Source of the DNA: Deltaproteobacteria bacterium
Lineage (GTDB): Bacteria > Desulfobacterota > Desulfomonilia > UBA1062
Reading direction: 5' to 3'
DNA: 64,000 nt
Assembly: GCA_018433775.1 (NCBI GenBank)
Contig: JAHDQN010000040.1
Coordinates: 20,587 to 84,586 of the forward strand
The first letter of the stretch is position 1. Each line of letters starts with the position of its first letter. A program made the translations under genes and the position numbers. This document shows positions 1 to 58,416 of the stretch, one piece after another. Under the pieces are notes generated by a model, which worked only from the letters and a program-made list of their open reading frames with translations, was not told the origin of the DNA and ran no database searches.

Positions 1-440
1 GAAGTTGAATCCAAATGCTCATTGATGCAATCCCATGTAGATTGGCTAAATAAAGGATCTCTTTCAGTAAGGATCAAAAAACCTTGGCCATACTTAATAT
101 GCCATTCCTCATATGAAACCTTGGATATTTTTTTGTGTAGAGTGGTTATAAATGCAATAGCAGTTCTCTCATCTGGACTGAAAATTGGGTGTTCTTTTCT
201 TATATATGGCTTTTCGCCAGGAGTGACAAAGGACCGCTCTTCCTGGGCTTCTTCATAACTTCTATAAATGTCAGCATGTTCAATCCAAATAAGTTTATCA
301 CCATCTTTTGCTATTGCATCAGGGGGATCAGGTTTTTCGATGACAATAAAATTAGTTGTATTCTTTGAATTATACCAGGCAAGGAAGCTATTAATAACCG
401 CATCCTCGTGAGCTCGCTGTATTTGTTCTCTTGGCTTCAT
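1..440 (-). CDS. Hypothetical cassette protein, 5'-complete, 3' end beyond window
   Basis: I translated the minus strand from the ATG at 438-440 to position 1 and found no stop (146+ codons: MKPREQIQRAHEDAVINSFLAWYNSKNTTNFIVIEKPDPPDAIAKDGDKLIWIEHADIY...). It is absent from the ORF track because it is open-ended. It begins 8 nt after attC 448-507. I recognise no domain. Confidence 0.5.
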   Translation of the reverse strand, partial: MKPREQIQRAHEDAVINSFLAWYNSKNTTNFIVIEKPDPPDAIAKDGDKLIWIEHADIYRSYEEAQEERSFVTPGEKPYIRKEHPIFSPDERTAIAFITTLHKKISKVSYEEWHIKYGQGFLILTERDPLFSQSTWDCINEHLDST

Positions 441-447
441 CTTTTAT

Positions 448-507
448 TCCCAACGTGGGCATCAGCGGCGCGGCTCCGCCGCGTCCGCCTGGATGCCTTG
501 GTTGGAT
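448..507 (-). repeat. attC recombination site (cassette boundary)
   Basis: The plus strand reads TCCCAAC...GTTGGAT. The inner stem is AGCGGCGCGGC / GCCGCG(T)CCGC, flanked by GGCATC / GATGCC. The unpaired bases (T, C, G) are all on the 3' arm of the plus strand, as in an attC bottom strand. Confidence 0.7.
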
Positions 508-1208
508 GATCTCTTGCATGTTTGAGGGACAGGCAGAATAAATCCTAATAATGAACTCATAATCAAAACTGCTATCCAAAAGTATATTGACAGGTAGAAA
601 GACCTCATCCCCCATTTGCTTAACTCTCTAGATTTCAATAGAGCTTCTCTTTGTTCTAGTTCTTTGTTTGTGGGTATGTATAATTCAATATTACCACTCT
701 CTGTAATGTAATTTGATTGAACACCATCTTCATAGAACAAAATTCCCGCATAAAATTTGCTTATTTTTGATTTTGTATTAATTGAGTCATTTGTAGAATT
801 AATGCGTGATACGATGATATCACGAATTGTATCTGGAGTCCTGTGAGGCGCTATTTTTTTGAATGTTTGGTATCCAACGACACTCATAAATAAACAAGAT
901 ACGATTATAAAAACACCTACAGCTGAATATATAAGTCCCTTTAAGGTGTAGCCGCTCTTTCGAATATCTCGGATACCAACAATAATCATTGTTGCTACCG
1001 CTGTTGTTAGTGCAACATCGCGAAATACGCGGATAAGCCATTCAATGAGTGCAACTTCGTGCGAAGCACTAAAAGGATCAAAATCAATAAAAATTAGGTA
1101 GAAAAGGTCAACAAAAATATAAAATGCAAAACCTAAAGGGATGATCCATTCACTGATACTTGATGGCCATCGAAATATTTTACTTATTATTGACATACCT
1201 ATTTTCAT
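462..1208 (-). CDS. Hypothetical multi-pass membrane protein (cassette-encoded)
   Basis: 248-aa ORF. Hydrophobic segments include WIIPLGFAFYIFVDLFYLIFI, TAVATMIIVGI, LIYSAVGVFIIVSCLFMSVVG and a C-terminal FYLSIYFWIAVLIMSSLLGFIL. The ATG directly abuts attC 1207-1263, and the stop codon lies inside attC 448-507. Confidence 0.55.
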   Translation of the reverse strand: MKIGMSIISKIFRWPSSISEWIIPLGFAFYIFVDLFYLIFIDFDPFSASHEVALIEWLIRVFRDVALTTAVATMIIVGIRDIRKSGYTLKGLIYSAVGVFIIVSCLFMSVVGYQTFKKIAPHRTPDTIRDIIVSRINSTNDSINTKSKISKFYAGILFYEDGVQSNYITESGNIELYIPTNKELEQREALLKSRELSKWGMRSFYLSIYFWIAVLIMSSLLGFILPVPQTCKRSSNQGIQADAAEPRR

Positions 1209-1263
1209 CCAACGTACCGATCACCGGCGGCTAAAAGCCGTCCGGTGCATTGGCTGGTTGGGC
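1207..1263 (-). repeat. attC recombination site (cassette boundary)
   Basis: The plus strand reads ATCCAAC-GTACCGAT-CACCGGCGGC-TAAAA-GCCG(T)CCGGTG-CATTGGCTG-GTTGGGC. The 3' arm carries an extra T. The central part is nearly identical to attC 2996-3052. Confidence 0.8.
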
Positions 1264-1326
1264 CTTTCGTGCATATATGCAAGGTAATTAATTATAACAT
1301 GCGGGGTTTTATTGCTGTATATAGCT

Positions 1327-2028
1327 TCATTCCTTTTGACTTCTTCTGCTATCTCTTCTGGCTTTTGCAAGTTTAAGCCTTGCTGGCTCGGTATATATTC
1401 TTTCTAGTAGCATAATAGTGAAATCAAGTAAGTCTTCAGCGTCCTCTCGTTTCAGTGTCCCTGCATGTGCACCATCGTTACCATCTTCACGCACACAAGC
1501 AGATAAATCACGTAAGCTCTCTGGAAGTATGCATTGATCAAACATCCATGGTAATCGCAATCCTAAATCACGACGAATACGTTTATTTAAGCCATTTGCA
1601 TCTTCTTCGGGAAGCATTCCCCTTGTAACAATGTCAATACACAAACGAAACATTGTACCAGCAGCATTATTACATCCAACAGCTAGACATGTTGCACCTT
1701 CACGAAAGACCTTTTCCACATCATCTGGTATGTGTTCCGGAGGCTCTGTTGTGGCAGTATCTTTTAAGCTTATGAATCCCTCAATATCAACATAAGTGTT
1801 CACTGCGCCTTTGAAACTTAATAAACCTTTTTCATGTACAAGCTTATAATTACCGTGAACATTTTCTGACAGAACAAATATTGTTGCCCGATGACAATGG
1901 CGACATTTACAGAAGGATTCATACCATTGCTGCCAGTCATATTTTACATACGTAACATGGGCTGCAATAATGTCGAAGGTAATCTTTTGTGCATGACATC
2001 GTGGACAATTTGCTACTAACTCAGCCAT
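1327..2028 (-). CDS. Zinc-ribbon plus DUF4145-like protein (cassette-encoded)
   Basis: 233 aa. The N-terminus has CPRC...CRHC cysteine pairs. The C-terminal helical region resembles DUF4145 (AVGCNNAAGTMFRLCIDIV, DGNDGAHAG, DAEDLLDFTIMLLERIY). The start lies about 40 nt after the attC core, with an AAAGGAA RBS. Confidence 0.55.
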   Translation of the reverse strand: MAELVANCPRCHAQKITFDIIAAHVTYVKYDWQQWYESFCKCRHCHRATIFVLSENVHGNYKLVHEKGLLSFKGAVNTYVDIEGFISLKDTATTEPPEHIPDDVEKVFREGATCLAVGCNNAAGTMFRLCIDIVTRGMLPEEDANGLNKRIRRDLGLRLPWMFDQCILPESLRDLSACVREDGNDGAHAGTLKREDAEDLLDFTIMLLERIYTEPARLKLAKARRDSRRSQKE

Positions 2029-2070
2029 AAAATATTATTCCTTTCACATAAAAAACATTTGTGACTTGAT

Positions 2071-2127
2071 GCCCAACGTAAGGGTCAGCCGCGCGCGTAG
2101 CGCGTCGGCTGCAACCTATGGTTAGGC
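2071..2127 (-). repeat. attC recombination site (cassette boundary)
   Basis: The plus strand reads GCCCAAC...GTTAGGC, a perfect match to RYYYAAC / GTTRRRY. The stem is CAGCCG-CGCG [CGTAG] CGCG-(T)-CGGCTG, with an extra T on the 3' arm. Confidence 0.8.
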
Positions 2128-2130
2128 GAT

Positions 2131-2985
2131 TTAACTAATTGTTAAATTTACTAATTCCTTAAAATCGCTTTCTCTTATTATGCGAAGATACTGCCCCTTT
2201 TTAATCAGCGATTCTGCTTTTCTGTGTTTGGAGCTTTTGTCATGGCCTGCAAGTTTTTTTACATCTTGATCCCCAACTACCAAAATAGTTGTATCCTTCC
2301 TAACCCCGTTAGCTACTGTGCAACCTATTTTTGAAGCCATATCAGCTGCTTCTCGCCGTGGAATATCAAGAGCACCGGTGAAAACTAAGACCTCACCAAA
2401 GAGATATCCCTCTGGATTACCTTCTCTTGAAATGCTGCTTGAAGGATCGATTGGTTGTTCGACACGTCTTAGCCAACCTTGTAAATCGATGCCCGTCTTA
2501 GCAATTGCAGCTAAAAGAATATGTGCAGCAGCTTTTGCATCTTCAAGGGCGTCATGATGCGCAAATTGGTATCCTAAGTTATTGCATACATTTGCAAGGC
2601 CGTACCCACTCCATGCAAATTGTTCCCATGTCCTGCGTGTTACGCGAGCAGAATCTAGCCAAGTACATGAAGGATTGCGAAGGTCATATTTTAAGCAAGC
2701 TTGTTGAATAGCCACTCGATCGAAATGGGTATGACAAACAACAATTCTACCATCTAAGTAATTGTATAAACGACTTGCAGCATCTGGCAGAGTGGGAGAG
2801 CCTTCTACTGTGGATTCATCGATTCCATGTATAGAAATGTTCATCCAATCGAAAAAATCCTCTGGATCGATATATGTCTTCCACTCTTCTTGCAACAATC
2901 CATTTTTGAAGACTGCAAGTCCTATTTGGCAGATTGAAGACATATCAGCATTAGCAGTTTCAAAGTCCAATGCTATAAAGTCCAT
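2131..2985 (-). CDS. DEDDh (DnaQ/epsilon-like) 3'-5' exonuclease fused to a C-terminal BRCT domain (cassette-encoded)
   Basis: 284 aa. Exo I is ALDFETAN, Exo II is CHTHFDRVAI and Exo III is HHDALEDAKAAA. The BRCT-like tail is GEVLVFTGALDIPRREAADMASKIGCTVANGVRKDTTILVVGD. An AGGAGG RBS sits immediately after the attC core (GTTAGGCAGGAGGCATTATG). Confidence 0.8.
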   Translation of the reverse strand: MDFIALDFETANADMSSICQIGLAVFKNGLLQEEWKTYIDPEDFFDWMNISIHGIDESTVEGSPTLPDAASRLYNYLDGRIVVCHTHFDRVAIQQACLKYDLRNPSCTWLDSARVTRRTWEQFAWSGYGLANVCNNLGYQFAHHDALEDAKAAAHILLAAIAKTGIDLQGWLRRVEQPIDPSSSISREGNPEGYLFGEVLVFTGALDIPRREAADMASKIGCTVANGVRKDTTILVVGDQDVKKLAGHDKSSKHRKAESLIKKGQYLRIIRESDFKELVNLTIS

Positions 2986-2995
2986 AATGCCTCCT

Positions 2996-3052
2996 GCCTA
3001 ACGTGCAGATCACCGGCGGCTGAAAGCCGTCCGGTGCATTTGCGGGTTAGCC
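2996..3052 (-). repeat. attC recombination site (cassette boundary)
   Basis: The plus strand reads GCCTAAC-GTGCAGAT-CACCGGCGGC-TGAAA-GCCG(T)CCGGTG-CATTTGCGG-GTTAGCC. Confidence 0.8.
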
Positions 3053-3079
3053 AGCCTACCCATATAATTTTATCTGGCA

Positions 3080-3880
3080 TTACAGCGGAAGACAATAAAT
3101 TAGATCTGTATAGCATTTTTCAACCACATTTTTTGGAAAAGGTAAATGTTCGTAATCACTTCCAATTATCCCTTTATTCAAATTCATTTGGTTGTCACAA
3201 AGGATAATTATGTATTTACCAAGGGCTTTAGCATACGATGTCTCACTAAGAATCCACGAGGTGTCTCCGGGTGTAAAGATACAGATAAAAATATCTTGTG
3301 AATGTATTTTTTGGGCCACTTTATCTGGTATATTCTTTGTTTCATAACCACTTCCTTCTTTAACGTCGAATCCGAGACGTCTGAGAAAGGTGTTGAGTTT
3401 GCCTGAAACATCATTTCCGTATTCATCAAACCTATGTGCTAAAAAAATAGACTTCTTTAACCCATACTTTGATACTTTGGCTGAAACATCTTCGCCGGGA
3501 TTACTGGCTTGGAAAAATGATTTTACATGATCATGTATTGAGCTAATAATATCTAGATCATCTGATCTTACACATACTTCAAGACCTGACTTGCGAATAT
3601 TAATTATAGTTGAAAACCCAAGAGATGCATTTTTGCCCCAATAGTAATGTACATATATTGGCAAAGCATTGGGATAAGTTTCAAGCAAACGCATGAACTC
3701 CTGAAAATTTTCAGCGTGAAGTCTTCTGAATTCACCAATATGCAGACTTAAAGAATGTGAGTCTGATTTTGGTTCTTGTGGTTTATATTTATTGATCTTC
3801 AAGTATTCATCAAATTGCCTAAAGGATGATAGTATATCTAAATTACTTGGGTATACAGAATACTCTCTATCTTCTTGCAT
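3080..3880 (-). CDS. Protein with unknown N-terminal domain and C-terminal TIR-like (DUF1863/TIR_2-like) domain (first cassette)
   Basis: 266 aa. The C-terminal roughly 120 aa (KKSIFLAHRFDEYGNDVSGKLNTFLRRLGFDV...DIFICIFTPGDTSWILSETSYAKALGKYIIIL) follow the TIR-like pattern: a beta-strand, an acidic loop, then an S-W-x3-E motif. I recognise nothing in the N-terminal 140 aa. Confidence 0.5.
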   Translation of the reverse strand: MQEDREYSVYPSNLDILSSFRQFDEYLKINKYKPQEPKSDSHSLSLHIGEFRRLHAENFQEFMRLLETYPNALPIYVHYYWGKNASLGFSTIINIRKSGLEVCVRSDDLDIISSIHDHVKSFFQASNPGEDVSAKVSKYGLKKSIFLAHRFDEYGNDVSGKLNTFLRRLGFDVKEGSGYETKNIPDKVAQKIHSQDIFICIFTPGDTSWILSETSYAKALGKYIIILCDNQMNLNKGIIGSDYEHLPFPKNVVEKCYTDLIYCLPL

Positions 3881-3896
3881 AAATACTGCCCCCTAT

Positions 3897-3967
3897 GGCT
3901 AACAACTTCCTCTACTGCATAATTGCAGCAAAAGTTGCTATATAGCAACTTTTGCTGCAACATTATG
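3897..3967 (-). repeat. Terminal cassette core site plus atypical 38-bp perfect palindrome (array boundary; truncated attC or attI remnant?)
   Basis: GGCTAAC at 3897-3903 is GTTAGCC on the cassette strand, the same core as at 3046-3052. A perfect palindrome TTGCAGCAAAAGTTGCTATATAGCAACTTTTGCTGCAA spans 3923-3960 and extends 5 bp further after a 2-nt bulge. There is no matching GTTRRRY box on the right side. Confidence 0.45.
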
Positions 3968-4311
3968 AATTACGAATATACCATGCTCCTCTTTTCGGAA
4001 GACCTTTCTCCTGGGGGGAGAGCTCGTGAGGGCCGTGCAGGAATCAGGGCAGACTCCGTCAGTAGAAGGTGAACGTGAAGATAGAAAATGGTCTCCTCTC
4101 ATTCATTTCATGCATCGACAAGGTCCGGCCGCCATTCCTGGCGTCCGGGCAATAACCTGTGAATACGATATCATTTTTTCCGCGACAAATCCAGATGAAA
4201 GTGAAAATGCTCAAGCCGCACGGGACTGCACCGTTCATGGCCCTGCCGCTCTGTACGGGCGGTCGAGCGGGCTGAACAGACCCCGCCGGGGTTTCCGGAG
4301 GCGTTACAGCC

Positions 4312-5946
<1,635 letters not shown>

Positions 5947-6271: not shown

Positions 6272-9200
6272 TTATTGCCGTGCATACAGGTCCTGCAGCG
6301 ACGACACGCCGAAGCCGCCCGCCTGCAGGGACCTGACGGCCTCGAGGCTCGCCCGCGAGGCCGCGACGGTCGTGGCGTAGGGGACGCTGTAGCGGATGGC
6401 GCTGCGGCGAATGTGGTGCGCGTCCTGCGAGGGTTTTCTGCCGATGCTCGTGTTGATGATCAACTGGATCTCGCGGTTCTTGATGTGGTCGACCACGTTG
6501 GGCCGGCCCTCGCTCACCTTGAGCACCACCTCGGCGTCAACGCCGCTCGCCTGCAGGTGCCGCGCGGTGCCCCGGGTGGCGACGATGCGGAAGCCGAGCC
6601 CGGCAAAGCCCTTTGCCACTTCCGTGATCCGGGCCTTGTGCATGTCGTGGACGCTGACGAACACGGTCCCGGAGTCCGGAAGGCCCGAGCCGGCCGCGAT
6701 CTGCGACTTGGCGAAGGCGGCCCCGAACGAGAAGTCCACCCCCATAACCTCGCCCGTCGACTTCATCTCCGGGCCAAGCCCCACGTCCGCGTCGGGAAAG
6801 CGCTGGAACGGAAACACGGCCTCTTTCACCGAGACGTGGGCAGGCACGACCTGCTCGGTGAAACCGAGCTCTTCAAGCGTCCGGCCCAGCATGACCTTGG
6901 TGGCGATCCGGGCCAGGGGCCTGCCGATTGCCTTGCTCACGAAGGGCACGGTCCTCGACGCCCGGGGGTTCACCTCCAGCACGTACACCTCGCCGTCCTT
7001 GACGGCGTACTGGATGTTCATGAGCCCGACCACCCCGATCTCTTTGGCGATCAGCCGGGTCTGCTCCCTGATCGTCTCCCGTATCTTCTCCGGCAGGGTC
7101 GCGGGCGGCAGCACGCACGCGCTGTCTCCGGAGTGGATGCCCGCCTCCTCGATGTGCTCCATGATCCCGCCGATCACCGTGGTTTGGCCGTCGCAGACCG
7201 CGTCCACGTCGACCTCGACCGCGTCCTCCAGAAAGCGGTCGATGAGCACGGCGTTGCCCGGAAAGAGCTTGAACACGCCGGTGATGAAGGTCTTCAGGGC
7301 TTGAGCGTCGTAGATGATCTCCATGGAGCGGCCGCCCAGCACATACGAAGGCCTGACCAGCACCGGGAAGCCGATCCCATCGGCCGCGGCGAGGGCCTCG
7401 TCAACGGTGAAGGCGATGTCGCTCTGCGGCTGCCTGAGATCGAGCTTCTTCACGATCTCGTTGAACCGCTCCCGGTCCTCGGCCCGGTCGATGGCGTCGG
7501 GCTGGGTGCCCAGGATGGTCACGCCCTCGTTCCACAGGTCCCGGGCGAGGTTGAGCGGGGTCTGGCCCCCGAACTGCACGATCACGCCCTCCGGGCTCTC
7601 GGCCCTGATCACGTGCAGCACGTCCTCCAGGGTGAGCGGCTCGAAGTAGAGCTTGTCCGAGATGTCGTAGTCCGTGCTCACGGTCTCGGGGTTGGAGTTG
7701 ATCATGATGCTCTCATAGCCCATCTCGCGCAGCGCGAACGAGGCGTGCACGCAGCAGTAGTCGAATTCGATCCCCTGGCCGATCCGGTTGGGCCCGCCGC
7801 CGATGATCACCACCTTGGGCCGCCCGGACGGCCTTGTCTCGGTCTCGGTCTCGTAGGTGGAGTAGTAGTAGGGCGTATAGGCCTCGAATTCGGCGGCGCA
7901 GGTGTCCACGAGCTTGTACACCGGCACGATTCCCTCGCGGAAACGCAGCCCCCGCACCCCGTCTTCGCCCATGCCCCAGGCCTCGGCCAGGAAGCGGTCG
8001 GAAAAGCCCATCCGCTTGGCCTCTTCCAGCAGCTCTTTTGAGGGCTTGCTGTTTTTGAGCGTGCCCTCGAACTCCACCAGCTCGCCTATGTGATAAAGAA
8101 ACCAGGGGTCGATCCCGGTCATGGCGTGTATCTCGTCCATGCCCATCCCGCTCCTGAGCGCCTCTGCCAGCCAGAACAGCCGGGCCGAGTTGGGATAGGT
8201 GAGCCGCGAGACGATCTCCTTGCGGTCTGCGGCGGCGCCTGCCTCGACCGGGCTGTTCAGGCCGTACCTGCCGGTCTCGAGCGAGCGGAGTGCCTTGCCG
8301 AGCGCCTCCTTGAAGGTGCGGCCGATGGCCATGGTCTCGCCCACGGACTTCATCGAGGTGGTGAGCAGGTCAGGGGTCTCCGGAAACTTCTCGAAGGTCC
8401 AGCGGGGGATCTTGACCACGCAGTAGTCGATGGCCGGCTCGAACGAGGCACAGGTCTCGCGGGTGATGTCGTTGGGGATCTCGTCCAGGGTGTAGCCCAC
8501 GGCCAGCTTGGCAGCGATCTTGGCGATGGGGAAGCCCGTTGCCTTTGACGCCAGGGCCGACGAGCGCGACACCCGGGGGTTCATCTCGATCACCACGATG
8601 TCCCCGTTCTTCGGGTTGACCGCGAACTGGACGTTGGAGCCGCCCGTCTCAACGCCGATCTCGCGCATGACCGCGACCGCGGCGTTGCGCAGATCCTGGT
8701 ACTCCACGTCGGTCAGGGTCTGGGCCGGGGCCACGGTGATGGAGTCGCCCGTGTGCACGCCCATGGGGTCGAGGTTTTCGATGGAGCAGATGATCACCAC
8801 GTTGTCCGCCCGGTCGCGCATGACCTCGAGCTCGTACTCCTTCCATCCGATCACCGACTCCTCGAGCATGATCTCGGTGATCATGCTCGCGTCGAGCCCG
8901 GCCTTTGCCATGACCTCGAGTTCTTCGGGGTTGTAGGCGATCCCGCCGCCGATCCCGCCCAGGGTGAACGAGGGCCGGACGATGACGGGGAAGCCGATCC
9001 GGCGGGCGATGGCAAACACCTCGTCCATGTTCCGGGCAAACCCGCTCTCCGGGACGCGCAGGCCGATGTTTTCCATGGCATGCCTGAACTTCTCGCGGTC
9101 CTCGGCCTTGTGTATGACCTCGGGTGTGGCACCGATCATCTCTACGCCGTACCTGTCGAGCACCCCCATCTCGTGGACCTTTACCGACACGTTCAGGCCG

Positions 9201-9481
9201 GTCTGGCCGCCCAGGGTCGGGAGTATGGCGTCGGGACGCTCCAGCTCGATTATCCTGGCCACCACCTCGGGCGTTATGGGCTCGATGTAGGTCCTGTCAG
9301 CGAGCTCCGGATCGGTCATGATGGTGGCCGGGTTCGAGTTGATGAGCACGACCCGGCAGCCCTCTTCCTTCAGGGCCTTGCAGGCCTGGACGCCCGAGTA
9401 GTCGAACTCGCACGCCTGGGAGATGACAATGGGTCCTGACCCGATGATGAGTATATTCTTCAGATCATTTCGTCGCGGCAT
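6272..9481 (-). CDS. carB: Carbamoyl-phosphate synthase large subunit
   Basis: 1069 aa. The N-terminus is [30 protein letters not shown], with duplicated ATP-grasp halves and an MGS-like C-terminus. Confidence 0.97.
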
Positions 9482-9758: not shown

Positions 9759-10751
9759 TTATGCGCTCAGCTTCGACCCCGCGGGTGCCGGCACGTCGAC
9801 TTCCCTGATCCTGATGCCTCTGGCTTTGAGGGCCTGCCGGCCGGCCAGCAGGTCCCTGCCGGCGATCTTGTCGAGCACATAGATCAGGTTGCCGCCGCGC
9901 TCGGCGTATATCTGCCCGTACGAGATCGGGATCTCAGGGGAGGGGTCGTCGAGAATCGAGCGGGTGATCGGTTCGAGCTTGCGCTCGCCGTTGGCAAGGA
10001 GCATGACGGTCTTTGCCTTGTACACGAGCTCGGCCCCCATCGAGACGGCATACCGGGGAGAGTCTTTCTCGGTGGCGAAATGGCCGTCGGCCACCGCGTT
10101 GGCGACCGTGTTGCCGTCGAGCTTCACGAGCAGGACATTGCTTCCCTTAAAGGGGATGCCCGACTCATGGAAGGCCACGTGGCCCCTGCCGCCCACGCCG
10201 ATGACCTGCAGGTCGATGCCTCCGGCCTTGCGGATCTTGCGGGCATAGCCGTCCAGGATCTCTTTCCTGATCCACCCCAAATATGCGGAGTCCGGGTTGC
10301 TCCGGATGGCAACCGACTTCCCCTTGTCGGTCCCCCTCTCCTCCCAGTCCTGCGGGTTTGCCTTGAGCTCGGCCACGAGCTTTTTCTGCTCGATCAGCGC
10401 GCCGTAGGGCACGTTGGTCTCGATGAACTTGCCCTTGAGAAGGCTGAAGAACTCCTGAATCATAAAAAATGCATAGCTCTCGGGGTGCATGACGCGGAGC
10501 TGGGCGTTCTCGCCCGGCAGGCCCACGTACTCGTCCAGGTTGAAGCTCCGGCAGCGTTTCGAGTCGAACTCGCCCTGGTTCGCCGCCTGTGCGAGATGCT
10601 TGTAGAGCCCTGTGGGCGAGTTGCCCGTCGCAAGCCCCAGCACGGCCTCCTGCTTCTGTTTCAGCACCTGCTGGATTTTATCCTTGGCAATGTCCGCGGC
10701 AACCTCGCTCATCGAGGCAAAATCATCAGTTACGAAAATCTCGATTCCCAT
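9759..10751 (-). CDS. Glucosamine-6-phosphate deaminase/isomerase family protein (NagB-like, with insertion)
   Basis: 330 aa. Motifs are GLATGNSPTGLY and DLQVIGVGGRGHVAFHESG. An insertion of about 60 aa relative to classical NagB lies around residues 120-180. Confidence 0.75.
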   Translation of the reverse strand: MGIEIFVTDDFASMSEVAADIAKDKIQQVLKQKQEAVLGLATGNSPTGLYKHLAQAANQGEFDSKRCRSFNLDEYVGLPGENAQLRVMHPESYAFFMIQEFFSLLKGKFIETNVPYGALIEQKKLVAELKANPQDWEERGTDKGKSVAIRSNPDSAYLGWIRKEILDGYARKIRKAGGIDLQVIGVGGRGHVAFHESGIPFKGSNVLLVKLDGNTVANAVADGHFATEKDSPRYAVSMGAELVYKAKTVMLLANGERKLEPITRSILDDPSPEIPISYGQIYAERGGNLIYVLDKIAGRDLLAGRQALKARGIRIREVDVPAPAGSKLSA

Positions 10752-10794
10752 GGATCTCTCTCTCCTCTCTCGATCTTTCCTGATGTTCCGCGGA

Positions 10795-12165
10795 TTATGA
10801 GGCTGCGGCCTCGCTCATGCCGAGCACCTTTTCCACGAGTTCCGCCAACTGGGTGCAGTATTTCTCCGTGACGTCCACCGACGGGCCTTCTACCATGACC
10901 CGGCACATGTTCTGGGTCCCGGAGTAGCGGACCAGGACGCGCCCCTGGTCGCCGAGCTCGCTCTCGACCTGGCTGATCGCGTCTCTGAGCTCGGGCACTG
11001 TGGAGATGTCCGGCTTGGTCTTCACGTTGACATTGATGAGCTTCTGCGGGTAGATGTCCATGAGCTTCGCCAGCTCCGAGAGCGGCTTGCCGGTCCTGAC
11101 CATGGCGGCTACGAGCTGCATGGCCGTGAGAATGCCGTCGCCCGTGGTGTGGTGGTCGAGGAAGATGAGGTGCCCCGAGTCCTCGCCGCCGATGACCCCG
11201 CCCATTTTGAGCATGTCCTCGAGCACGTAGCGGTCGCCCACCTTTGCGGCGTGATGGCTGAAACCGTACTTTTTGCAGGCCACCCTCAGCCCCAGGTTGC
11301 TCATGACCGTGCTCACCAGGAGATCGTTCTTGAGCCTGCCCTCTTCCTTGAGTATCCGGGCGCAGATGAGCAGGATCTGGTCCCCGCTGATCTCCTGCCC
11401 CTTCTCGTCGACCGCGATGAGCCGGTCCCCGTCTCCGTCGAACGCCAGGCCCACCGCCGCGCCGGTTTCCAGGACCCGCTTCTTCAGGTCAGCGGTATGC
11501 TGCGAGCCGCACGCGTCGTTGATGTTCAGCCCGTTCGGCGAGTTGTGCAGCACCTCGACATCGGCGCCCAGCTCGGTGAAGGCATCGGGCGCGACCCGGT
11601 ACGTGGCGCCGTTGGCGGTGTCCATGACGATCTTCATCTCCTCCATGGAGAGGTCCCGCGGAAAGGTGTTTTTCAGGAACACCACATACCGGCCGTTCAC
11701 GTCTTCCATCCGCAACGCCCGGCCCATGTCCTTGGAAGGGGGCAGGTGCTTTGCCAGTTTGCTGTTCAGGATGAGGTCCTCGATGGTGTCTTCCTGCTCG
11801 TCCGAGAGCTTGAACCCGTTGCCGCCGAAGATTTTGATCCCGTTGTCCTCGTAGGGGTTGTGCGAGGCCGAGATCACGATGCCCGCGTCGGCCCGCATGC
11901 TGTTGGCGATAAAGGCGATCCCCGGCGTGGGAAGCACGCCGACCAGATAAGGGTTGCCGCCCATGGAGGTGATGCCGGCTTCCAGCGAGCTCTCGAGCAT
12001 ATAGCCCGAGATGCGGGTGTCCTTGCCGATGATGATCCGTGTGCGGTGATGCTCCTTCCTGAGGAGATACGTCACCGCCTGGCCCACCAGGAAGGCGATC
12101 TGCGCGTTCATGGGGTATTTGTTCGCCTCCCCGCGTATTCCGTCCGTACCGAATAGCTTGCCCAT
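10795..12165 (-). CDS. glmM: Phosphoglucosamine mutase
   Basis: MGKLFGTDGIRGEANKYPM at the N-terminus and the active-site motif SASHNPYEDNGIK. The ATG at 12165 is preceded by AAAGGAGGA. The track's 40-codon upstream extension is rejected. Confidence 0.93.
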   Translation of the reverse strand: MGKLFGTDGIRGEANKYPMNAQIAFLVGQAVTYLLRKEHHRTRIIIGKDTRISGYMLESSLEAGITSMGGNPYLVGVLPTPGIAFIANSMRADAGIVISASHNPYEDNGIKIFGGNGFKLSDEQEDTIEDLILNSKLAKHLPPSKDMGRALRMEDVNGRYVVFLKNTFPRDLSMEEMKIVMDTANGATYRVAPDAFTELGADVEVLHNSPNGLNINDACGSQHTADLKKRVLETGAAVGLAFDGDGDRLIAVDEKGQEISGDQILLICARILKEEGRLKNDLLVSTVMSNLGLRVACKKYGFSHHAAKVGDRYVLEDMLKMGGVIGGEDSGHLIFLDHHTTGDGILTAMQLVAAMVRTGKPLSELAKLMDIYPQKLINVNVKTKPDISTVPELRDAISQVESELGDQGRVLVRYSGTQNMCRVMVEGPSVDVTEKYCTQLAELVEKVLGMSEAAAS

Positions 12166-12212
12166 GTAAAATCCTCCTTTGATCGTGTGTTCAGCTGGAA
12201 ATAATTCTGCCC

Positions 12213-13436
12213 TTAAAACAACTGCAGGCCGGGCATGGCCTGGGAAACCGCCTTGGCGTGTGATGTAACGACGCTTTCCAGCCATGCCGTCCCTTGATCG
12301 GAAACATCCGCGGGCAGACCCTGGATGGTTTCGATGTAACCGTCCCGTCCTGCCTGCATCGCCCTGTTCAGCCCGCCCAGGAACTCATCTTTCAGCGTTT
12401 CCGCGTCTGAACCAGGGATTGTATCCATCTCAAACATCTCTTTGATTTTATCGCTATTTTTTGTGAACCCGTCCCCGAATTGGGGGGCGCGCTTGGCCAT
12501 TGCCTCGAGCCGCTTCAGGCGTTCCTTGCGGGCGAGCGAGAGCTTGTCGAGGAGGCCTGCGTGGATGAGGGGGCCGAACTCGACCGCGTCCAGGAAGGGC
12601 TTGCGCACGTGGACATACCACTCGCGCAGGGCCGCGAGGTTCGCCAGATAGAGGATGTTGTTCTCCACCACGCGCTTGAGGTTCGGGTACAGGGCCGGCT
12701 GATACTCCCTTACTCCGCCCGGGTGCGGCTCGACCGTGATCAGACAGTTGTCGTCCGGGCAGTCCTGCCTGAGCACCGAGCCCGCGGCCACGACGTTGCC
12801 GAACCCCATGCGGACCGGCCCAACGATCCCCCCCTGGCCTCCGAGGAAGATGGGCGGCCGGTTCAGCATCACGCCCCTGGGCACGTCGCCGAGCAGCGAG
12901 GGGGTCGTCTTGTCGCCGTCCGGGGTGAAGTTGAAGTGGATGTACGAGCTCCCCACCTCGCTGTGGTCCTTGCGGCTGGTTCCCCCGGCCATGAGGCAGT
13001 CGCAGAAGTTGATCAGGCTGCCCAGGGTCACGAAGGGGAAGAGTATGGTCTGCTTGAGCCCCACGCAGTGGGCACCGCCCGCCTCCTCCTCCAGGATCGA
13101 ACCCTCGCGGACATGGGCGCCCAGGCCCATGTTGGATCTGTCGAGGAACACCGACTTGCTGAAATAGCCGCCCTTGAGCTCCACGTCGCGGCCGATCTGG
13201 CAGTCCTCGATCGTGACCGGGCCTTCGCGGCCGATCTGCGCGCCCGATGAGATGACGGTCTTCTCGCCGTAGATCCTGCACCCGGGATAGATCCTGACGC
13301 CCTGCGCGGATATCCGCCCGATGTCGACCTCTTCCCCGATATCGAGGGTCAGGGGGTTGGGGAGATCGATCCCCTTCTCGAGCAACTGCACGATCTTCTC
13401 ATGGCATCGCGGCGTTATGTCCATCGGCACCTCCAT
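12213..13436 (-). CDS. Left-handed beta-helix (hexapeptide-repeat) protein, GlmU acetyltransferase-domain-like, with helical C-terminal extension
   Basis: Hexapeptide-type repeats run through IGRISAQGVRIYPGCRIYGEKTVISSGAQIGREGPVTIEDCQIGRDVELKG. The start is ATG 13436, or ATG 13424 with a GGAGGTG RBS. The track's upstream extension overlaps the preceding gene in another frame. Confidence 0.6.
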   Translation of the reverse strand: MEVPMDITPRCHEKIVQLLEKGIDLPNPLTLDIGEEVDIGRISAQGVRIYPGCRIYGEKTVISSGAQIGREGPVTIEDCQIGRDVELKGGYFSKSVFLDRSNMGLGAHVREGSILEEEAGGAHCVGLKQTILFPFVTLGSLINFCDCLMAGGTSRKDHSEVGSSYIHFNFTPDGDKTTPSLLGDVPRGVMLNRPPIFLGGQGGIVGPVRMGFGNVVAAGSVLRQDCPDDNCLITVEPHPGGVREYQPALYPNLKRVVENNILYLANLAALREWYVHVRKPFLDAVEFGPLIHAGLLDKLSLARKERLKRLEAMAKRAPQFGDGFTKNSDKIKEMFEMDTIPGSDAETLKDEFLGGLNRAMQAGRDGYIETIQGLPADVSDQGTAWLESVVTSHAKAVSQAMPGLQLF

Positions 13437-38429: not shown

Positions 38430-40073
38430 TCACTCGCCCGTTGTCCTGAACTTCTTCACGTCGCTTGAGAGTACCGAGGCATCCGCCCTGAGACTGTCAA
38501 GGGTGCAGGCAAGCTCTTCAACGGTGGTGGCGTTGTTCTGTGTGAATGAGTCTATCTGGCTGACGGCTATGGAGAGCTCCTTCATGTTCTGGCTCTGCTC
38601 CATGCTTGCCGTGGTAATCTCTTCCATCATCTTGAAAAAGAAATCGAAGCGCGACATGAGCTCTTCGAGGGACTCGGCCGTCTTTTTCATGAATTCGTCA
38701 CCGGTCTTGATACGGCCCACGGTTCCGTCGATGAGATTCCGGATCTCCCTGGCCGCATCGCCCGAGCGCTGGGCAAGGGCACGGACCTCACCTGCCACCA
38801 CCGCGAATCCTTTCCCGTGCTCGCCTGCCCGGGCGGCCTCCACCGATGCATTGAGGGCCAGGAGGTTTGTCTGGAAGGCCACTTCGTTGACCGTCACCAC
38901 GATATCCCCGATCTTCCGGGAATCCTGGGAAATTTCCCGGGTGGCATCCATCAGCCGGGAGAAGACCTCCCTGTTCTTGTCGATGAGCCCGGTGATGATC
39001 TGGGAGGTTTCCCTCCCCCCCTTCACCACCTGGGTGTTGTGCTGAATCGATCCGTTCATTTCTTCTATCGATGCGGATATCTCCTCAATGGACGCCGACT
39101 GTTCCTGAGTCGCCTGTGACAGGCCCTGTGAGCCCGAGCTCACCTGCTCGATGGAGCCATGGAGTTGTAAAGAGATGTGCCTCACATGCCGTATGATCTC
39201 TTCCAGGTCGTTCATGAACTCGTTGAACCAGTGGGCAAGCTGGCCCACCTCATCGATGCCCCTCACCTCCAGCCGTCTTGTGAGATCGCCCTTGCCTCCC
39301 GCCATGTCCTTGAGCATGCGGGACATGCCGCCAACGGAGGCGGTGATCCCCTTCATGAGAAGATATCCGTTGAGGAAGGTCATGATGACGGTCTGGAGGA
39401 CTATGAGAGGAAAGCTCATCTGGATAGTGGAAAGCGGCATGCCGGCGAATATGGAGAGATAGATGGTGCCGATCAGATCGCCGATTGGAGGGATTGCGAT
39501 GAGAAGAATGATGGCGAAGAGCTTCTGGTTGAGGCTGATTCTCAGATAACCCGTGCCATCTGCGAGGATTCCCTTCCTGCTGCACTCCCGGTAAAAGGGG
39601 GCGAGGCTGTTCTCGGCCACCAGGTAATAGAGCGCCATTCCTGACAATCCGGTCATACCCAGGATATTGCCCCCGAATATGAGCAAATCGAACGGCAGGT
39701 AATCTTTCATGTAAAGGGGCATCACCACGGACAGCCATGCAATCCCGGCCCACCTGATGAATATCAGGACAGCCTCTGCAAAGGGGAGGATCGAAGCACA
39801 GCGCAGGGCATACCTCGCCTCCCGCTCGTCAAGTCCTCCGTCCTCCATCACCCTGACGGCAGGACTCACCAGATGATATTTGACCGCCGCTCCGATAGCC
39901 ACCGAGATCACGGTCTGCAGGAATACCAGGGTGATGCCTTCGAGAAAATGTTCCCTGAACCCTTGAGATATGGGAAGAAAAAACATGATGACCGTCGGCA
40001 CCAGCACGAGATACGTGATTCCCTCCTGGAGCAGGAACGGGCGCAGGGAAAAGACCTTTGTGTACTCCTTCAT
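38430..40073 (-). CDS. Methyl-accepting chemotaxis protein with multi-pass membrane N-terminal region and HAMP domain
   Basis: The signalling domain is EVAFQTNLLALNASVEAARAGEHGKGFAVVAGEVRALAQRS. The N-terminal roughly 250 aa are hydrophobic. The ATG at 40073 is preferred to the TTG at 40079. Confidence 0.9.
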   Translation of the reverse strand: MKEYTKVFSLRPFLLQEGITYLVLVPTVIMFFLPISQGFREHFLEGITLVFLQTVISVAIGAAVKYHLVSPAVRVMEDGGLDEREARYALRCASILPFAEAVLIFIRWAGIAWLSVVMPLYMKDYLPFDLLIFGGNILGMTGLSGMALYYLVAENSLAPFYRECSRKGILADGTGYLRISLNQKLFAIILLIAIPPIGDLIGTIYLSIFAGMPLSTIQMSFPLIVLQTVIMTFLNGYLLMKGITASVGGMSRMLKDMAGGKGDLTRRLEVRGIDEVGQLAHWFNEFMNDLEEIIRHVRHISLQLHGSIEQVSSGSQGLSQATQEQSASIEEISASIEEMNGSIQHNTQVVKGGRETSQIITGLIDKNREVFSRLMDATREISQDSRKIGDIVVTVNEVAFQTNLLALNASVEAARAGEHGKGFAVVAGEVRALAQRSGDAAREIRNLIDGTVGRIKTGDEFMKKTAESLEELMSRFDFFFKMMEEITTASMEQSQNMKELSIAVSQIDSFTQNNATTVEELACTLDSLRADASVLSSDVKKFRTTGE

Positions 40074-40766
40074 GAGCAACCTTCCTTTCCCGATAAAAGG
40101 CTTTTATGTCATATTGTATGTTTATATTATTCATTCATTCTTCCTGGGTATATCGGCGACACAGTGCTGTAAATTTAATCGCATACCTGCCGGCATTGCA
40201 AAGGTTTACGACCGGTAACTTTTAGGGAGTAAGAAAAGAAGGAACCCTGCCCTGGAAGACAGGAAAAGAAACCGGATGTTCGGAAAAGCCGACTCCTTAA
40301 AAACCACCAAACCGAAAGATTCACAAGAATGAACACCATCCGCCCTCAACGGGAAATCAGTGCACGGGGAGGTTCGTGTATGTATGATTTCTTATAGAGA
40401 TATGAATTCTGTATCTCGCGATCTCAGGTTGAGATAGCCAGTTGATATATGCAATGTAGGCTAAGCCTTGTTATCCTCACACGATATATGAACTCTTCAA
40501 AAGACCTGTTTAATGGGAAAGGCTCTCTGCGGTGCCAGGAGAAATGATTGGGACTAATAGTGTAGTTGTAAAATCACCGACGATCCAAGTTTACCTATCC
40601 TCTGTTCGAGCTATACTGATCATTCACTTTTTTTAGGCAAGGGGCGTAATAATTATATTGATGATGGCTACCGATACTATCGGCAGATGACGCTTCGGCG
40701 TGTCACGATTCATTCCAGGCGTTAATTGCCTGGGTAAAGGCAACGTCCAGAGGAGGAGTAGCGATC

Positions 40767-42077
40767 ATGAGGCACCTTCGTATATCCATCATGGGTCTTG
40801 CAGTGTGCGTAGCGGTCATGTTCACGTGCGGATGCAGCGCGGTGCGGTATACCACCACCATGAAGCCTTCCTGCGACAAGGACCTGCAGTACGGCCCGGT
40901 CCGCCTCAACGTGTCGAGCTTCACCTACGAGATGCCTGGTGTTCAGCCCCAGCCGCCGGACATCGACCGGAAGGCGAAAGAGCTCTTCCCGAGCGTGTTC
41001 ACGGACGACCTCGCAGGACTGCCTGTCCACATCGACATCAAGAAAACGTACGACGACACGTCCATGGGCGTCACGAGGCTCCTCTCGCTTACCTTCACGC
41101 TTGGGGTGATCCTGATACCGGGCACCCAGGAGTACGGGTTCATTGTCCGTACGAGCGTGCTGGACTCCCTGGGCGAGCCCCTGGTCGAGAAAGAGGGGAA
41201 GTTCGGAATCGACACGGTGTCATGGGGCAGCTACTGGCCCTGGGGCCTCCTGCCGGTGATCGGGCCCTCCGACCTTCCGAGGGCATCCCTTTTCAGCGGG
41301 AGCAACTTCGCGTCCGGCACGATAGAGTCTCAGACCAAGATCAACGACCACGCCGCCGCGTGCATCGCCGAGATCGCGGCCCGGTCGCTCCAGTCGGCAG
41401 ATCAGGCCAGGCTCGAAGCAGCCTACCGTGAACGGCAGTCCCGCGTGCAGGAGGTCACCATCGACGGCCGGAAGTGCACAAGTTTCCTCACCATGAACCC
41501 GGTGTCCAGGCCGAAGGTTGGCAGCGTCTTCAAGGCGCTCGTGTACGATGGCGAACCGAAGCAGTGGACAAAACCGCTGCATACCGCGGTCGTGGCCCGA
41601 TACGACGAGTCCGGCCGCTGGCGGCCCGTGAAAACCTACCTGCGCCATGCCCGCACGCTCACCTCGGTGAGCGCCCTGATCGAGAACAATATCCCGGTCA
41701 AAGTGGCGGTGCGCACGCCCGAAGCGCCTCCCCTGGAGGACTTCATCGACACCCCGGACCTCTCGGGTGCCGACCGTGCCGAGGTCTTGCGCTGGAGCAA
41801 CTCCATGCTGCTCGATGCCAAGAACCGGTCCCTGGAGAGGCTGCTGCAAGAGGAGAGCAGGGAAACGCTGCTCGCGCTCGCGACCCGTATCGAGCGCTCC
41901 ATCCTGGACCTGAACGAGCAGGCGGAGCGAGCCAAGGACAAGGCCCAGGCCATGGTGGAAAAGGGAGAGGGCGACCCTGCCCCCGAGAGAGAGCTGTCGG
42001 TCCTGTGCCGCCAGCGCATCGAGGTGCTCAAGCCCGTGCTCGCAGCCGTCAAGGTTGCTGCAGCGGGAAAGCAGTAA
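40767..42077 (+). CDS. Putative lipoprotein of unknown function (paralog A)
   Basis: 436 aa. The signal peptide with cysteines is MGLAVCVAVMFTCGCS, behind an AGAGGAGGAG RBS. It is homologous over its full length to 42177-43511. The conserved C-terminal block is PPLEDFIDxPDLSGxDRAxxLRWSN...RELSVLCRQRIE. Confidence 0.7.
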   Translation: MRHLRISIMGLAVCVAVMFTCGCSAVRYTTTMKPSCDKDLQYGPVRLNVSSFTYEMPGVQPQPPDIDRKAKELFPSVFTDDLAGLPVHIDIKKTYDDTSMGVTRLLSLTFTLGVILIPGTQEYGFIVRTSVLDSLGEPLVEKEGKFGIDTVSWGSYWPWGLLPVIGPSDLPRASLFSGSNFASGTIESQTKINDHAAACIAEIAARSLQSADQARLEAAYRERQSRVQEVTIDGRKCTSFLTMNPVSRPKVGSVFKALVYDGEPKQWTKPLHTAVVARYDESGRWRPVKTYLRHARTLTSVSALIENNIPVKVAVRTPEAPPLEDFIDTPDLSGADRAEVLRWSNSMLLDAKNRSLERLLQEESRETLLALATRIERSILDLNEQAERAKDKAQAMVEKGEGDPAPERELSVLCRQRIEVLKPVLAAVKVAAAGKQ

Positions 42078-57706: not shown

Positions 57707-57978
57707 TGTTTACCTCCTGTTGTTGGATTGTATCTTTCCTTCTTCGGCAATTGGGTTGAGAAACTTTCGTTATTTTACGCAATGAAATATTAATTTTAGA
57801 TTTTGTATTATTCCGGGCCTGAGGTTCACCGGCTGATGCGGGCGCTATGCCCGGCACGACAGTATGTCCGGTATGACGAAAAGGAACGAATGAGCGCATG
57901 ACAGTGGATACGAAATCATGCTTGTGATACAAGACAACCGGATTTATCAACTGACAGACAGGGGTTCTTGAGGAAGGT

Positions 57979-58416
57979 ATGAAGAAACTCATCCTGATCC
58001 TGCTCGCCGCAGCCTATGCCGCGAGCCCCTATGACCTGCTGCCGGATTTTCTCATCGGCTGGGGCTGGCTCGACGACCTGTTCGTCGGATATCTCCTGTA
58101 CCGGTATGTGCTCTTCCCGGTCGCGGGCCGATTCGCCAGGACAGAGAGCTCCGGCGGCCGGAGGCGGGAATATGCGGGCCGGGATTCAGCTGCGGGCGGT
58201 CGGCACGATTCCGGAAGCGCGCCCGGCCCCAAAGACCCCTACTCCGTGCTCGGCCTGGACCGTGGGGCGTCAAGGGACGAGATTCAGAAGGCCTACCGGG
58301 AGCTGGCGAACAAGTATCACCCGGACAAGGTCCAGCACCTGGGCGAGGAGTTCAGGATGCTGGCCGAAGAGCGTTTCAAGGAAATCCGCCAGGCATACGT
58401 CTCGCTGACGGAATGA
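57979..58416 (+). CDS. DUF1232 (YkvA-like) membrane domain fused to a J (DnaJ) domain
   Basis: 145 aa. The DUF1232 pattern is [29 protein letters not shown]. The J domain is [32 protein letters not shown]. Confidence 0.8.

Follow-up and report, generated by a model that had tools for sequence, protein, structure and literature searches.

Single-gene anti-phage proteins built around a TIR-like core have been described on mobile elements. Evangelion (Eva01) and Swarozyc (KpSwz) are experimentally validated one-gene defence systems of the DUF4062 TIR-like NADase type (bioRxiv 10.64898/2026.06.25.731849; Osinski et al. 2026). In each, the TIR-like core is fused to an auxiliary domain, divergent and unannotated, which activation requires and which is proposed to recognise the phage, and the outcome is abortive and NAD+-linked (bioRxiv 10.64898/2026.06.25.731849). 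Integron cassettes, too, are known to serve as a reservoir for anti-phage genes (Darracq 2025, Kieffer 2025, Getz 2025).

Here we describe a 266-aa protein that resembles this type of TIR-like protein and belongs to a family that is itself uncatalogued. It is encoded within a 64,000-nt stretch of Deltaproteobacteria DNA (contig JAHDQN010000040.1), which we call the window and whose numbering is used throughout. Taken as a whole, our analysis makes the protein a credible candidate for a one-gene anti-phage suicide switch.

A two-domain gene in an attC array

The gene lies at 3080..3880 on the minus strand, with an ATG start and a stop codon at 3080-3082, and its translation includes the strings SIFLAHRFDEYGNDV and QDIFICIFTPGDTSWILSETSYAKALGKY. 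We found 122 homologues (E<=1e-3), down to 40% identity and nearly all 262-269 aa long, with the start position conserved across their alignment. We therefore consider the ORF a real gene and not a chance one. A public contig also carries a protein identical to the product.

An AlphaFold2 model of the protein (mean pLDDT 85.8) consists of an N-terminal domain (residues 1-122; 3515..3880, minus strand), a low-confidence linker (residues ~123-142; 3455..3514, minus strand; pLDDT 53-71) and a beta-alpha C-terminal domain (residues 143-266; 3083..3454, minus strand). These boundaries agree with the split into about 140 and 120 aa proposed in an earlier sequence-only reading of this DNA, while the full-length pTM of 0.51 leaves the arrangement of the two domains relative to each other uncertain. 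The linker carries a conserved F-x-A-S-N-P motif, in which F123 is invariant and A125 and P128 are nearly invariant.

Next to the gene, an attC site closes its cassette (GGCTAAC ... GTTAGGC; 2988..3056, minus strand), identified by its repeat family (D1/D2), by covariation and by a covariance-model score of 79 bits. The same kinds of evidence (repeats, covariation and covariance model) place other attC-like sites on the minus strand at ~440-506, 1201-1262 and 2062-2126. Each of the four repeats in the window is immediately 3' of a minus-strand gene, the other cassettes encoding a DEDDh exonuclease-BRCT protein (2131..2985), a DUF4145 protein (1327..2028) and a multi-TM protein (462..1208). The four repeats have a 20-pair consensus hairpin in common, and compensatory changes occur at 8 of its pairs. 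A strict regular-expression scan for attC had yielded next to nothing, and covariance models trained on the attC sites of the window succeeded. On the other side, just upstream of the gene, a GTTAGCC core of R' type (3898..3904, minus strand), read from the sequence, fits GTTRRRY save at one position and marks where the first cassette is bounded on its 5' side; upstream of this core we found neither a hairpin nor an R'' box to pair with it. The flanking attC, the core and the hairpin covariation together confirm that the gene sits in a cassette. That it is the first cassette, as the sequence-only reading also had it, is right by orientation, but neither an integron integrase nor a recognisable attI was found upstream of it within the window. 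Because there is no integrase on the expected side, we describe the array as CALIN-type and not as a complete integron within the window. A crude motif scan of the 67 window ORFs of at least 250 aa, which is a weak test, detected no tyrosine-recombinase box, and an Rfam search of positions 1-4400 found nothing.

The array has a GC content of 36-42% against ~62% for the genome, forming a low-GC island that abuts pyrG/carB and lies 20-25 points under its host. Upstream of it are pyrG (CTP_synth_N, 424 bits), carB and a phosphoglucomutase gene. We detected no promoter-like site upstream of the 266-aa gene, and the promoter and terminator scan stayed at background level. As the first gene of an integrase-less attC array downstream of pyrG, it is probably expressed by read-through from pyrG. 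Among the adjacent cassettes there are matches to two models of candidate defence genes, PDC-S48 (1.9e-28) and PD-T7-4 (1.4e-8).

The gene is mobile and has no conserved partner. An attC site is directly beside the homologue in five other loci (L003, L012, L013, L016 and L020) and weakly so in a sixth (L002); elsewhere, homologues form sharp, solitary low-GC inserts between housekeeping genes. The lack of a detected attC at those other loci is weak evidence, because our covariance models are biased to the window's attC type. Across 20 genomes, which span at least 8 phyla-level groups, there was no conserved neighbour gene, which bears out the single-gene status suggested earlier. Neighbourhood gene families were common to at most 3 of the 20 loci, and those shared were housekeeping genes, for an AMP-binding enzyme and a MiaB-like protein. 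The C-terminal domain is present in at least 830 clusters at 50% identity. This wider family was reached only by an exhaustive HMM search; a word-indexed search with the C-domain profile gave only fragments of the same family.

The C-terminal domain and its predicted active site

The C-terminal domain is modelled as a flavodoxin-like beta-alpha fold, with the five-stranded parallel beta-sheet and flanking helices of a TIR domain. Searched alone, the 266-aa protein stays under every curated threshold; it matched Pfam TIR_2 at E=0.025 and 15.5 bits, and its TIR_2 scores span 15.5-17.5 bits where the gathering score is 28. Among its relatives, TIR_2 was matched (E<=0.1) by 31 of 56 close members (best 7.9e-6) and 30 of 58 broad members (best 8.4e-8), and it was the commonest Pfam match in both sets, followed by CAP12-PCTIR_TIR and ThsB_TIR. 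The close homologue P0073 reached 26.8 bits against the same gathering score, and the distant relative P0291, which is linked to the C-domain profile at E=2.8e-17, exceeded it with 34.2 bits. Since it is the relatives that score higher, the match to a curated TIR model holds by transitivity and not for the 266-aa protein alone. A broad family profile (A5) run against the PDB found the TIR domains of SARM1 (E=7e-4 to 1e-3) and TIR-1 (0.016), then EcThsB (0.23) and RPS4 (0.74), and the SARM1 TIR was also the top structural neighbour in Foldseek. At the level of the family, the Pfam, profile and structure matches thus uphold the TIR-like C-terminal domain of the sequence-only reading.

The same can be said of the S-W-x3-E motif with a catalytic-type glutamate that it had pointed out. 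The predicted active-site motif, W209-I-L-S-E213, is encoded at 3242..3256 on the minus strand (W209, 3254-3256; E213, the predicted catalytic glutamate, 3242-3244). All 56 close and all 58 broad members of the family have E213, and at least 90% have W209. In profile alignments to the PDB, the two residues align with SARM1 W638 and E642, with the glutamate at the start of helix alpha-C and the tryptophan at -4. K187 and F151 are also invariant among the 58 diverse relatives, and D242 and E244 are conserved in at least 90%. The data support a TIR domain that has diverged from those of SARM1 and bacterial TIR_2 but is of their type and retains the catalytic glutamate and the tryptophan before it, and we predict that it cleaves NAD+ at the nicotinamide-ribose bond.

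D242 and E244 belong to a strongly conserved C-terminal motif, G-I-I-G-x-D-Y-E-H-x-x-F, for which no counterpart could be mapped onto known TIR active sites and which may point to a different ligand. One alternative that we consider improbable is that the C-terminal domain is an N-glycosidase of the NDT/MilB/DNPH1 type, in which E213 attacks a nucleoside or (deoxy)nucleoside monophosphate, possibly phage-modified, in place of NAD+, and serves defence or metabolism/salvage by hydrolysis or base exchange. Foldseek did list MilB (E=7e-4), BcmB (1.8e-3) and DNPH1 (2.5e-3) as further neighbours, and their catalytic glutamate is likewise placed, in the topology of the fold, after the third strand. 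Pfam Nuc_deoxyrib_tr was weakly matched by 6 of the 56 close and 4 of the 58 broad members; we rejected membership of that family, since the best match (E=0.0056, 17.2 bits) falls short of the 28.8-bit gathering score. Several observations argue for TIR instead. The broad profile that finds SARM1, TIR-1, ThsB and RPS4 in the PDB returns no NDT, MilB or DNPH1 chain at E<=10, and neither do profiles A1 and A3; TIR-family Pfam models both outnumber and outscore Nuc_deoxyrib_tr; and the motifs F-[LI]-[AS]-[HY]-R-F-D and W-x3-E fit TIR (FISYRR and W638-x3-E642 in SARM1). The sequence-only reading had named an NDT-like fold with no conserved glutamate as the result that would speak against it; the glutamate is invariant, and the sequence profiles favour TIR. 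Given the D242/E244 motif and the equal structural closeness to TIR and to NDT/MilB, the substrate of the domain could nevertheless be a nucleotide, or a modified phage nucleotide, and not NAD+. If that is true, the family would be a functional bridge from TIR NADases to nucleotide N-glycosidases.

Other identities suggested by the searches were rejected. Acid phosphatases appeared only in the single-sequence PDB search, at E ~0.5, which is noise. A SIS domain (phosphoheptose isomerase, E 0.02-0.11, with the full-length and close-family profiles against the PDB) was set aside because the match is a partial segment, beta3-alphaC-beta4, and weak SIS matches occur in just 2-5 members; NCBIfam likewise gave only SIS-type matches, all sub-threshold. 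A lysozyme match to the broad profile (E=1.4e-4) was made up of a short peptide that recurs and was matched three times, at ~8 bits each.

The N-terminal domain and a proposed mode of action

The N-terminal domain is an alpha/beta domain with the order beta-alpha-beta-beta-alpha-beta-beta-beta-alpha. It matched no known family, as had been anticipated when it was called a domain of unrecognised type, and we propose that it is a sensor or regulatory module. It evolves faster than the C-terminal domain (43% against 69% column identity), and in the wider family it falls into ~6 BLAST clusters that are joined only by hhalign, at 91-97% probability. A conserved ligand site was sought across the wide family and none was found, no polar residue being conserved family-wide.

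We lean, by a modest degree, towards a mobile, self-contained protein in which an N-terminal sensor gates a TIR NADase, making an abortive anti-phage switch. The N-terminal domain would inhibit the TIR domain for as long as it senses no sign of infection. Detection of such a sign would then permit TIR-TIR self-association, which such enzymes need, and the C-terminal domain would cut NAD+ through E213. The infected cell, depleted of NAD+, would stop growing or die (abortive infection). The whole unit travels in either of two forms, a one-gene integron cassette or a bare insert of ~0.9 kb. A bolder version of this proposal seems rather doubtful to us: that the protein is the founding member of a large, uncatalogued, autonomous TIR immune class, that its N-terminal domain is a new fold family and a hyper-variable phage sensor, and that it is the smallest mobile TIR module known, moving by attC recombination and also, as a bare single gene, into housekeeping operons.

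The role of the protein might also have nothing to do with immunity. It could be a selfish toxin or stress-response module with a part, for instance, in stabilising the array or in conflict between bacteria, or else a TIR scaffold that has no catalytic function. We judge a non-immune role of this sort quite improbable. Addiction modules abound in cassette arrays, as do genes whose role is not known, and many cassette genes are unrelated to phages. The viral contigs that we scanned held no homologue of the protein, hence no direct link to phages in either direction. However, the loci have no conserved adjacent small ORF resembling an antitoxin, and in those inspected (neighbour ORFs and Pfam matches) there was no signal peptide or secretion-system neighbourhood. 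The invariant catalytic glutamate speaks against a pure scaffold, and a fast-evolving N-terminal domain joined to a constant effector would be the usual signature of an immune sensor.

Least probable, in our judgement, is a ThsB-like generator whose TIR domain makes a cADPR isomer or related signal for an effector encoded elsewhere, with no self-killing by NAD+ depletion: some ThsB proteins are similar in size and two-domain layout, PADLOC ThsB models gave weak matches (best 7.9e-5 among relatives) and Pfam ThsB_TIR matched 8 of the 58 broad members, but the 20 loci contain no ThsA-like or other conserved neighbour, both the sequence searches and Foldseek match best to SARM1-type domains, which deplete NAD+, and unrelated genomes acquire the gene by itself, in a one-ORF cassette or a solitary insert, so that a requirement for a dedicated partner would be unworkable. 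In PADLOC-DB v2.0.0 no system was matched significantly, and the best match for the 266-aa protein itself was ThsB at E=0.0092 over 48 residues.

Comparison with known systems

TIR NADase effectors, defence genes in integron cassettes and a single-gene TIR-like core with an unannotated sensor are all already published. Because these three concepts precede our analysis, its value lies in a new, abundant and uncatalogued family and not in a new principle. Should our reading of the protein as a gated NADase hold, this would be a very compact TIR switch, with a sensor of ~125 aa and an enzyme of ~125 aa, and therefore a convenient one for studying the control of a TIR NADase by a sensor. The N-terminal domains of the family, many of them swapped or diverged in nature, would provide a ready series for mapping trigger specificity. 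The role of integrons as defence biobanks would also extend beyond Vibrio and clinical integrons to uncultured Nitrospirota, Desulfobacterota, Acidobacteriota (Bryobacterales), Verrucomicrobiota and Planctomycetota.

Among characterised proteins, the C-terminal domain has a flavodoxin-like fold in common with the TIR domains of SARM1 and TIR-1 and with bacterial TIR_2, and its FLAHRF aligns with the beta-A motif FISYRR of SARM1, at an identity of only ~18-22% between the two proteins. SARM1 is regulated by ARM and SAM domains, whereas the 266-aa protein has in their place a ~125-aa N-terminal domain of no known family, and it adds the strongly conserved G-x-D-x-E-x-x-x-F near its C-terminus. 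Thoeris ThsB is also a small bacterial TIR-like protein, to which the matches of our family are weak and far under any threshold, and it acts with a ThsA effector encoded beside it, unlike our family in the 20 loci. The likeness to NDT, MilB and DNPH1 is confined to the structure of the C-terminal domain, the motifs fitting TIR and not NDT.

As in the anti-phage cassettes of mobile integrons (BRiCs) and of the Vibrio SCI (Ogmios, Divona and Sucellos), a compact gene lies between attC sites with defence-like cassettes alongside. Those systems, from Vibrio or from clinical integrons, have been tested by experiment. Our array shows no integrase within the window, lies 20-25 GC points under its host and belongs to an uncultured high-GC bacterium; we found no report of the family among them, as far as they are covered by the literature citing them.

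The resemblance to Evangelion and Swarozyc is one of design and not of membership: DUF4062 (PF13271) is absent among the Pfam matches listed for the 56 close members and among all 21 families of the 58 broad members. Like them, our protein is the product of one gene carried on mobile elements and combines an aromatic beta-1 motif with a catalytic-type glutamate in a TIR-like core. The order of the parts is reversed, the variable domain being N-terminal and the TIR-like core C-terminal in the 266-aa protein, and the carrier differs as well: theirs is a resistance plasmid, whereas our gene is found in environmental bacteria, within an integron cassette or as a solitary insert.

The gene and its cassette array

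The minus-strand ORF at 3080..3880 (266 aa, ATG start) is a real gene, whose product is a mobile, partner-less two-domain protein with a TIR-type C-terminal domain that keeps the catalytic-site residues and a fast-diverging N-terminal domain. All strings that the sequence-only reading had quoted are present in its translation. Searching ~5.8 billion proteins at E<=1e-3 brought up 122 relatives, with identities from 100% to ~40%; almost all of them have 262-269 aa, and the N-terminal Met is conserved (56 close relatives are aligned in A1). Source annotation calls family members only ‘hypothetical protein’, bar one ‘ribonuclease M5’ label that we took as an annotation error.

The gene lies in a low-GC island: positions 1-4000 of the window have 36-42% GC versus ~58-65% in the other 60 kb, with an abrupt step from ~36% to ~61% at ~3900-4320. 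The island carries four ~60-nt direct repeats on the minus strand, at ~440-506 (3’ of the 248-aa membrane protein gene described below), ~1201-1262 and ~2062-2126 (each directly 3’ of a minus-strand gene), and ~2988-3056 (after the TIR-like gene; GGCTAAC...GTTAGGC). All four show the pattern RYYYAAC...GTTRRRY on that strand and share one imperfect hairpin; of its 20 pairs, 8 have compensatory double changes. These boxes and the hairpin identify the repeats as attC sites, and the island is therefore an integron-type cassette array. Two more local GC dips, at 40001-41000 (0.48) and 57001-58000 (0.52) against ~0.6, may be other acquired DNA.

The orientation of the array makes the TIR-like gene the first cassette, as had been proposed. 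The second (2131-2985, minus) encodes a 284-aa fusion of a DEDDh (RNase_T/DnaQ-like) exonuclease with BRCT that scores E=1.9e-28 against PDC-S48, a candidate-defence model in PADLOC, and 7.6e-24 against a Cas-associated DEDDh model. The product of the third (1327-2028, minus) is a DUF4145 protein of 233 aa that has a CxxC...CxxC pair in its N-terminal part and a match to the PADLOC model PD-T7-4 (E=1.4e-8). The fourth (462-1208, minus), a 248-aa multi-pass membrane protein whose ORF overlaps the attC site at 440-506, had no match in Pfam, NCBIfam or PADLOC. Given the TIR-like gene and the matches to PDC-S48 and PD-T7-4, three of the four visible cassettes look defence-related. The array probably continues past the window’s left edge.

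A core site, GTTAGCC (3898-3904), lies 18 nt upstream of the TIR-like gene’s ATG. Beyond it come a palindrome, the GC-rich pyrG 3’ flank, and then pyrG (4312-5946), carB (6272-9481) and a phosphoglucomutase gene (10795-12285), all on the same strand and co-directional with the array. Since these genes, and no integrase or attI within the window, occupy the side where an integron integrase belongs, the array is best described, at least on that side, as a CALIN (an attC cluster without an integrase); a crude motif scan of the window found no tyrosine recombinase. Between pyrG and the TIR-like gene, neither a sigma-70-like promoter nor an intrinsic terminator was called, from which we reasonably infer that the latter may be expressed by read-through from pyrG. 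The perfect 38-bp palindrome (TTGCAGCAAAAGTTGCTAT followed by ATAGCAACTTTTGCTGCAA, 3923-3960), in the short low-GC stretch that separates the core site from the pyrG 3’ flank, is present once in the window, is not terminator-like and has no Rfam match; an attI remnant and an operator are possible readings of it.

The C-terminal domain

Alone, the 266-aa protein gave sub-threshold matches to TIR_2 (E=0.025; 15.5 bits, gathering score 28), CAP12-PCTIR_TIR (E=0.12) and PADLOC ThsB (E=0.0092). Pfam matches among the 56 close relatives were to TIR_2 in 31 (best 7.9e-6), Nuc_deoxyrib_tr in 6 and CAP12-PCTIR_TIR in 5. An exhaustive HMM search of 1.84 billion cluster representatives with a C-domain profile (A3) recovered 830 proteins at E<=1e-3, 316 of them at E<=1e-10; in nearly all, the domain is C-terminal, with 110-160 residues ahead of it. 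Among 58 diverse members of this wider family (A5), 30 matched TIR_2 (best 8.4e-8) and 8 each CAP12-PCTIR_TIR and ThsB_TIR; only 4 matched Nuc_deoxyrib_tr (best 0.012). The distant relative P0291 (E=2.8e-17 to the C-domain profile) reached 34.2 bits against TIR_2, exceeding the gathering score, and P0073, a 48% identical relative, 26.8 bits. Against all PDB sequences, the A5 profile matched the SARM1 TIR (E=7e-4 to 1e-3) and C. elegans TIR-1 (0.016) and, more weakly, EcThsB (0.23), the RPS4 TIR (0.74) and BdThsB1 (1.0), and found no deoxyribosyltransferase, MilB or DNPH1 at E<=10.

Invariant in A1 are F146, A148, F151 and D152 of the FLAHRFD strand, together with G176, Y179, K187, D196, G205, W209, E213, A217, G237, G240, D242, E244 and F248. 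In A5, F151, K187 and E213 are invariant, and F146, V188, W209, D242, E244 and F248 are at least 90% conserved. The SARM1 alignment sets FISYRR opposite FLAHRF and DWVHKE opposite SWILSE; by this pairing, W209 (codon 3254-3256, minus) and E213 (3242-3244, minus; both read from the window sequence) correspond to SARM1 W638 and the catalytic E642. We consider the domain very probably homologous to TIR.

An AlphaFold2 model built on A1 (mean pLDDT 85.8) shows a five-strand beta-alpha C-terminal domain with E213 in the helix after the third strand. Its structural neighbours were the 2’-deoxyribosyltransferases 6evs and 7o62 (scores 14.6 and 14.0), the IL-1RAcPb TIR (13.7), MilB (13.5), the SARM1 TIR (13.1; 22% identity), the B. 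cereus TIR (13.0) and ThsB (12.1). Foldseek (3Di+AA) placed SARM1 and TIR-1 at the top (E 1e-4 to 5e-4, probability 1.00), followed by MilB (7e-4), BcmB and DNPH1. The fold is thus common ground between TIR and NDT-type N-glycosidases, and structure alone cannot tell the two apart; by sequence profiles and motifs, TIR is favoured over NDT. The sequence-only reading would have been refuted by an NDT-like fold lacking a conserved Glu, which is not what the family shows, as E213 is invariant; its TIR-like C-terminal half with a putative catalytic Glu is borne out by family profiles, motifs and this residue.

The N-terminal domain and single-gene mobility

Modelled separately, the N-terminal domain (pLDDT 91.3, pTM 0.85) has the element order beta-alpha-beta-beta-alpha-beta-beta-beta-alpha. 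It evolves faster than the TIR half (mean column identity 43% versus 69% in the same proteins). N-termini of the wider family fall into ~6 BLAST clusters, the window protein’s comprising 20 of the top 143 representatives; they join only at profile level (hhalign probability 91-97% for most pairs), and no family-wide conserved polar residue was found across them. Other modules also precede the TIR-like domain, namely two Clp_N repeats in the relative P0230 and DUF5343 in P0215, and several distant relatives of ~370-385 aa have longer N-termini.

We compared neighbouring ORFs within +/-5 kb all-against-all at 20 homologue loci from species-representative genomes, including Nitrospirae, Desulfobacterales, Desulfobaccales, Bryobacterales, Chlorobiales, Bacteroidetes, Verrucomicrobiota, Phycisphaerales/Planctomycetia, Eubacteriales and Sulfuricella. 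No neighbour family was common to more than 3 of the 20, and the two recurrent ones, an AMP-binding enzyme and a MiaB-like radical-SAM protein, are both housekeeping. Covariance models trained on the window’s own attC sites detected attC adjoining the homologue at loci L003, L012, L013, L016 and L020, and weakly at L002, with whole arrays at L013 and L016. The same models found none at L006, L009, L010, L014 and L015, where the homologue is a solitary, sharp-edged, low-GC block of ~0.9-1.0 kb (L009 10001-10798; L010 2433-3197; L014, L015 and L006 ~10001-10800), at 32% GC versus 60% for the locus in L009. Flanking genes there encode, for example, aspartate-semialdehyde dehydrogenase, CN-hydrolase, histidine phosphatase, ABC ATPase and FAD oxidase; secondary-site integration and attC decay are both possible origins. 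Because homologues occur as attC-flanked cassettes and as solitary inserts with no shared neighbour, the transfer unit is the single gene. No homologue turned up among 2.9 million viral contigs. On L013 (1174-9230), a Eubacteriales MAG contig, at least 10 attC sites lie on the homologue’s strand, the homologue being the first gene of the run, and one opposite-strand attC at 1174-1239 suggests two back-to-back arrays.

Predicted function and comparison with known systems

A constant catalytic module with a diversifying partner domain would fit a sensor-effector pattern. By analogy with what is established for SARM1-type and bacterial TIR effectors, the N-terminal domain would keep the enzyme inactive and, on sensing an infection cue, would let the TIR domains self-associate and form the active site; E213 would cleave the nicotinamide-ribose bond of NAD+, and NAD+ collapse would abort the infection. 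We lean modestly towards NAD+-directed chemistry and give an anti-phage role even chances. The main biochemical alternative is that the protein acts as a nucleotide N-glycosidase, like MilB or DNPH1; the strongly conserved and unexplained motif G-I-I-G-x-D-Y-E-H-x-x-F, which holds D242 and E244, leaves room for this. It is less likely that the protein is a dedicated ThsB-type signal generator, since the gene spreads without any effector. Overall, as far as computation reaches, the results support a TIR-like candidate defence effector, the function proposed from sequence.

Integron cassettes are established reservoirs of anti-phage genes, according to summaries in papers that cite Kieffer et al. 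2025, Darracq et al. 2025 and Getz et al. 2025. Evangelion and Swarozyc, both DUF4062 systems, are validated cases of one gene that combines a TIR-like NADase core with an unannotated auxiliary sensor (bioRxiv 10.64898/2026.06.25.731849, and Osinski et al. 2026 as cited there). In contrast to these, the cassette family has no DUF4062 match among the 25 of 26 Pfam families listed for its 56 close members or the 21 families matched by its 58 broad members, and its domain order is reversed. Since it also has no significant model match in PADLOC v2 and almost only ‘hypothetical protein’ labels, we regard it as an uncatalogued but abundant TIR family whose N-terminal domain is new, carried in cassettes of uncultured environmental bacteria. 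The gene is a good candidate for defence screens rather than a conceptual surprise.
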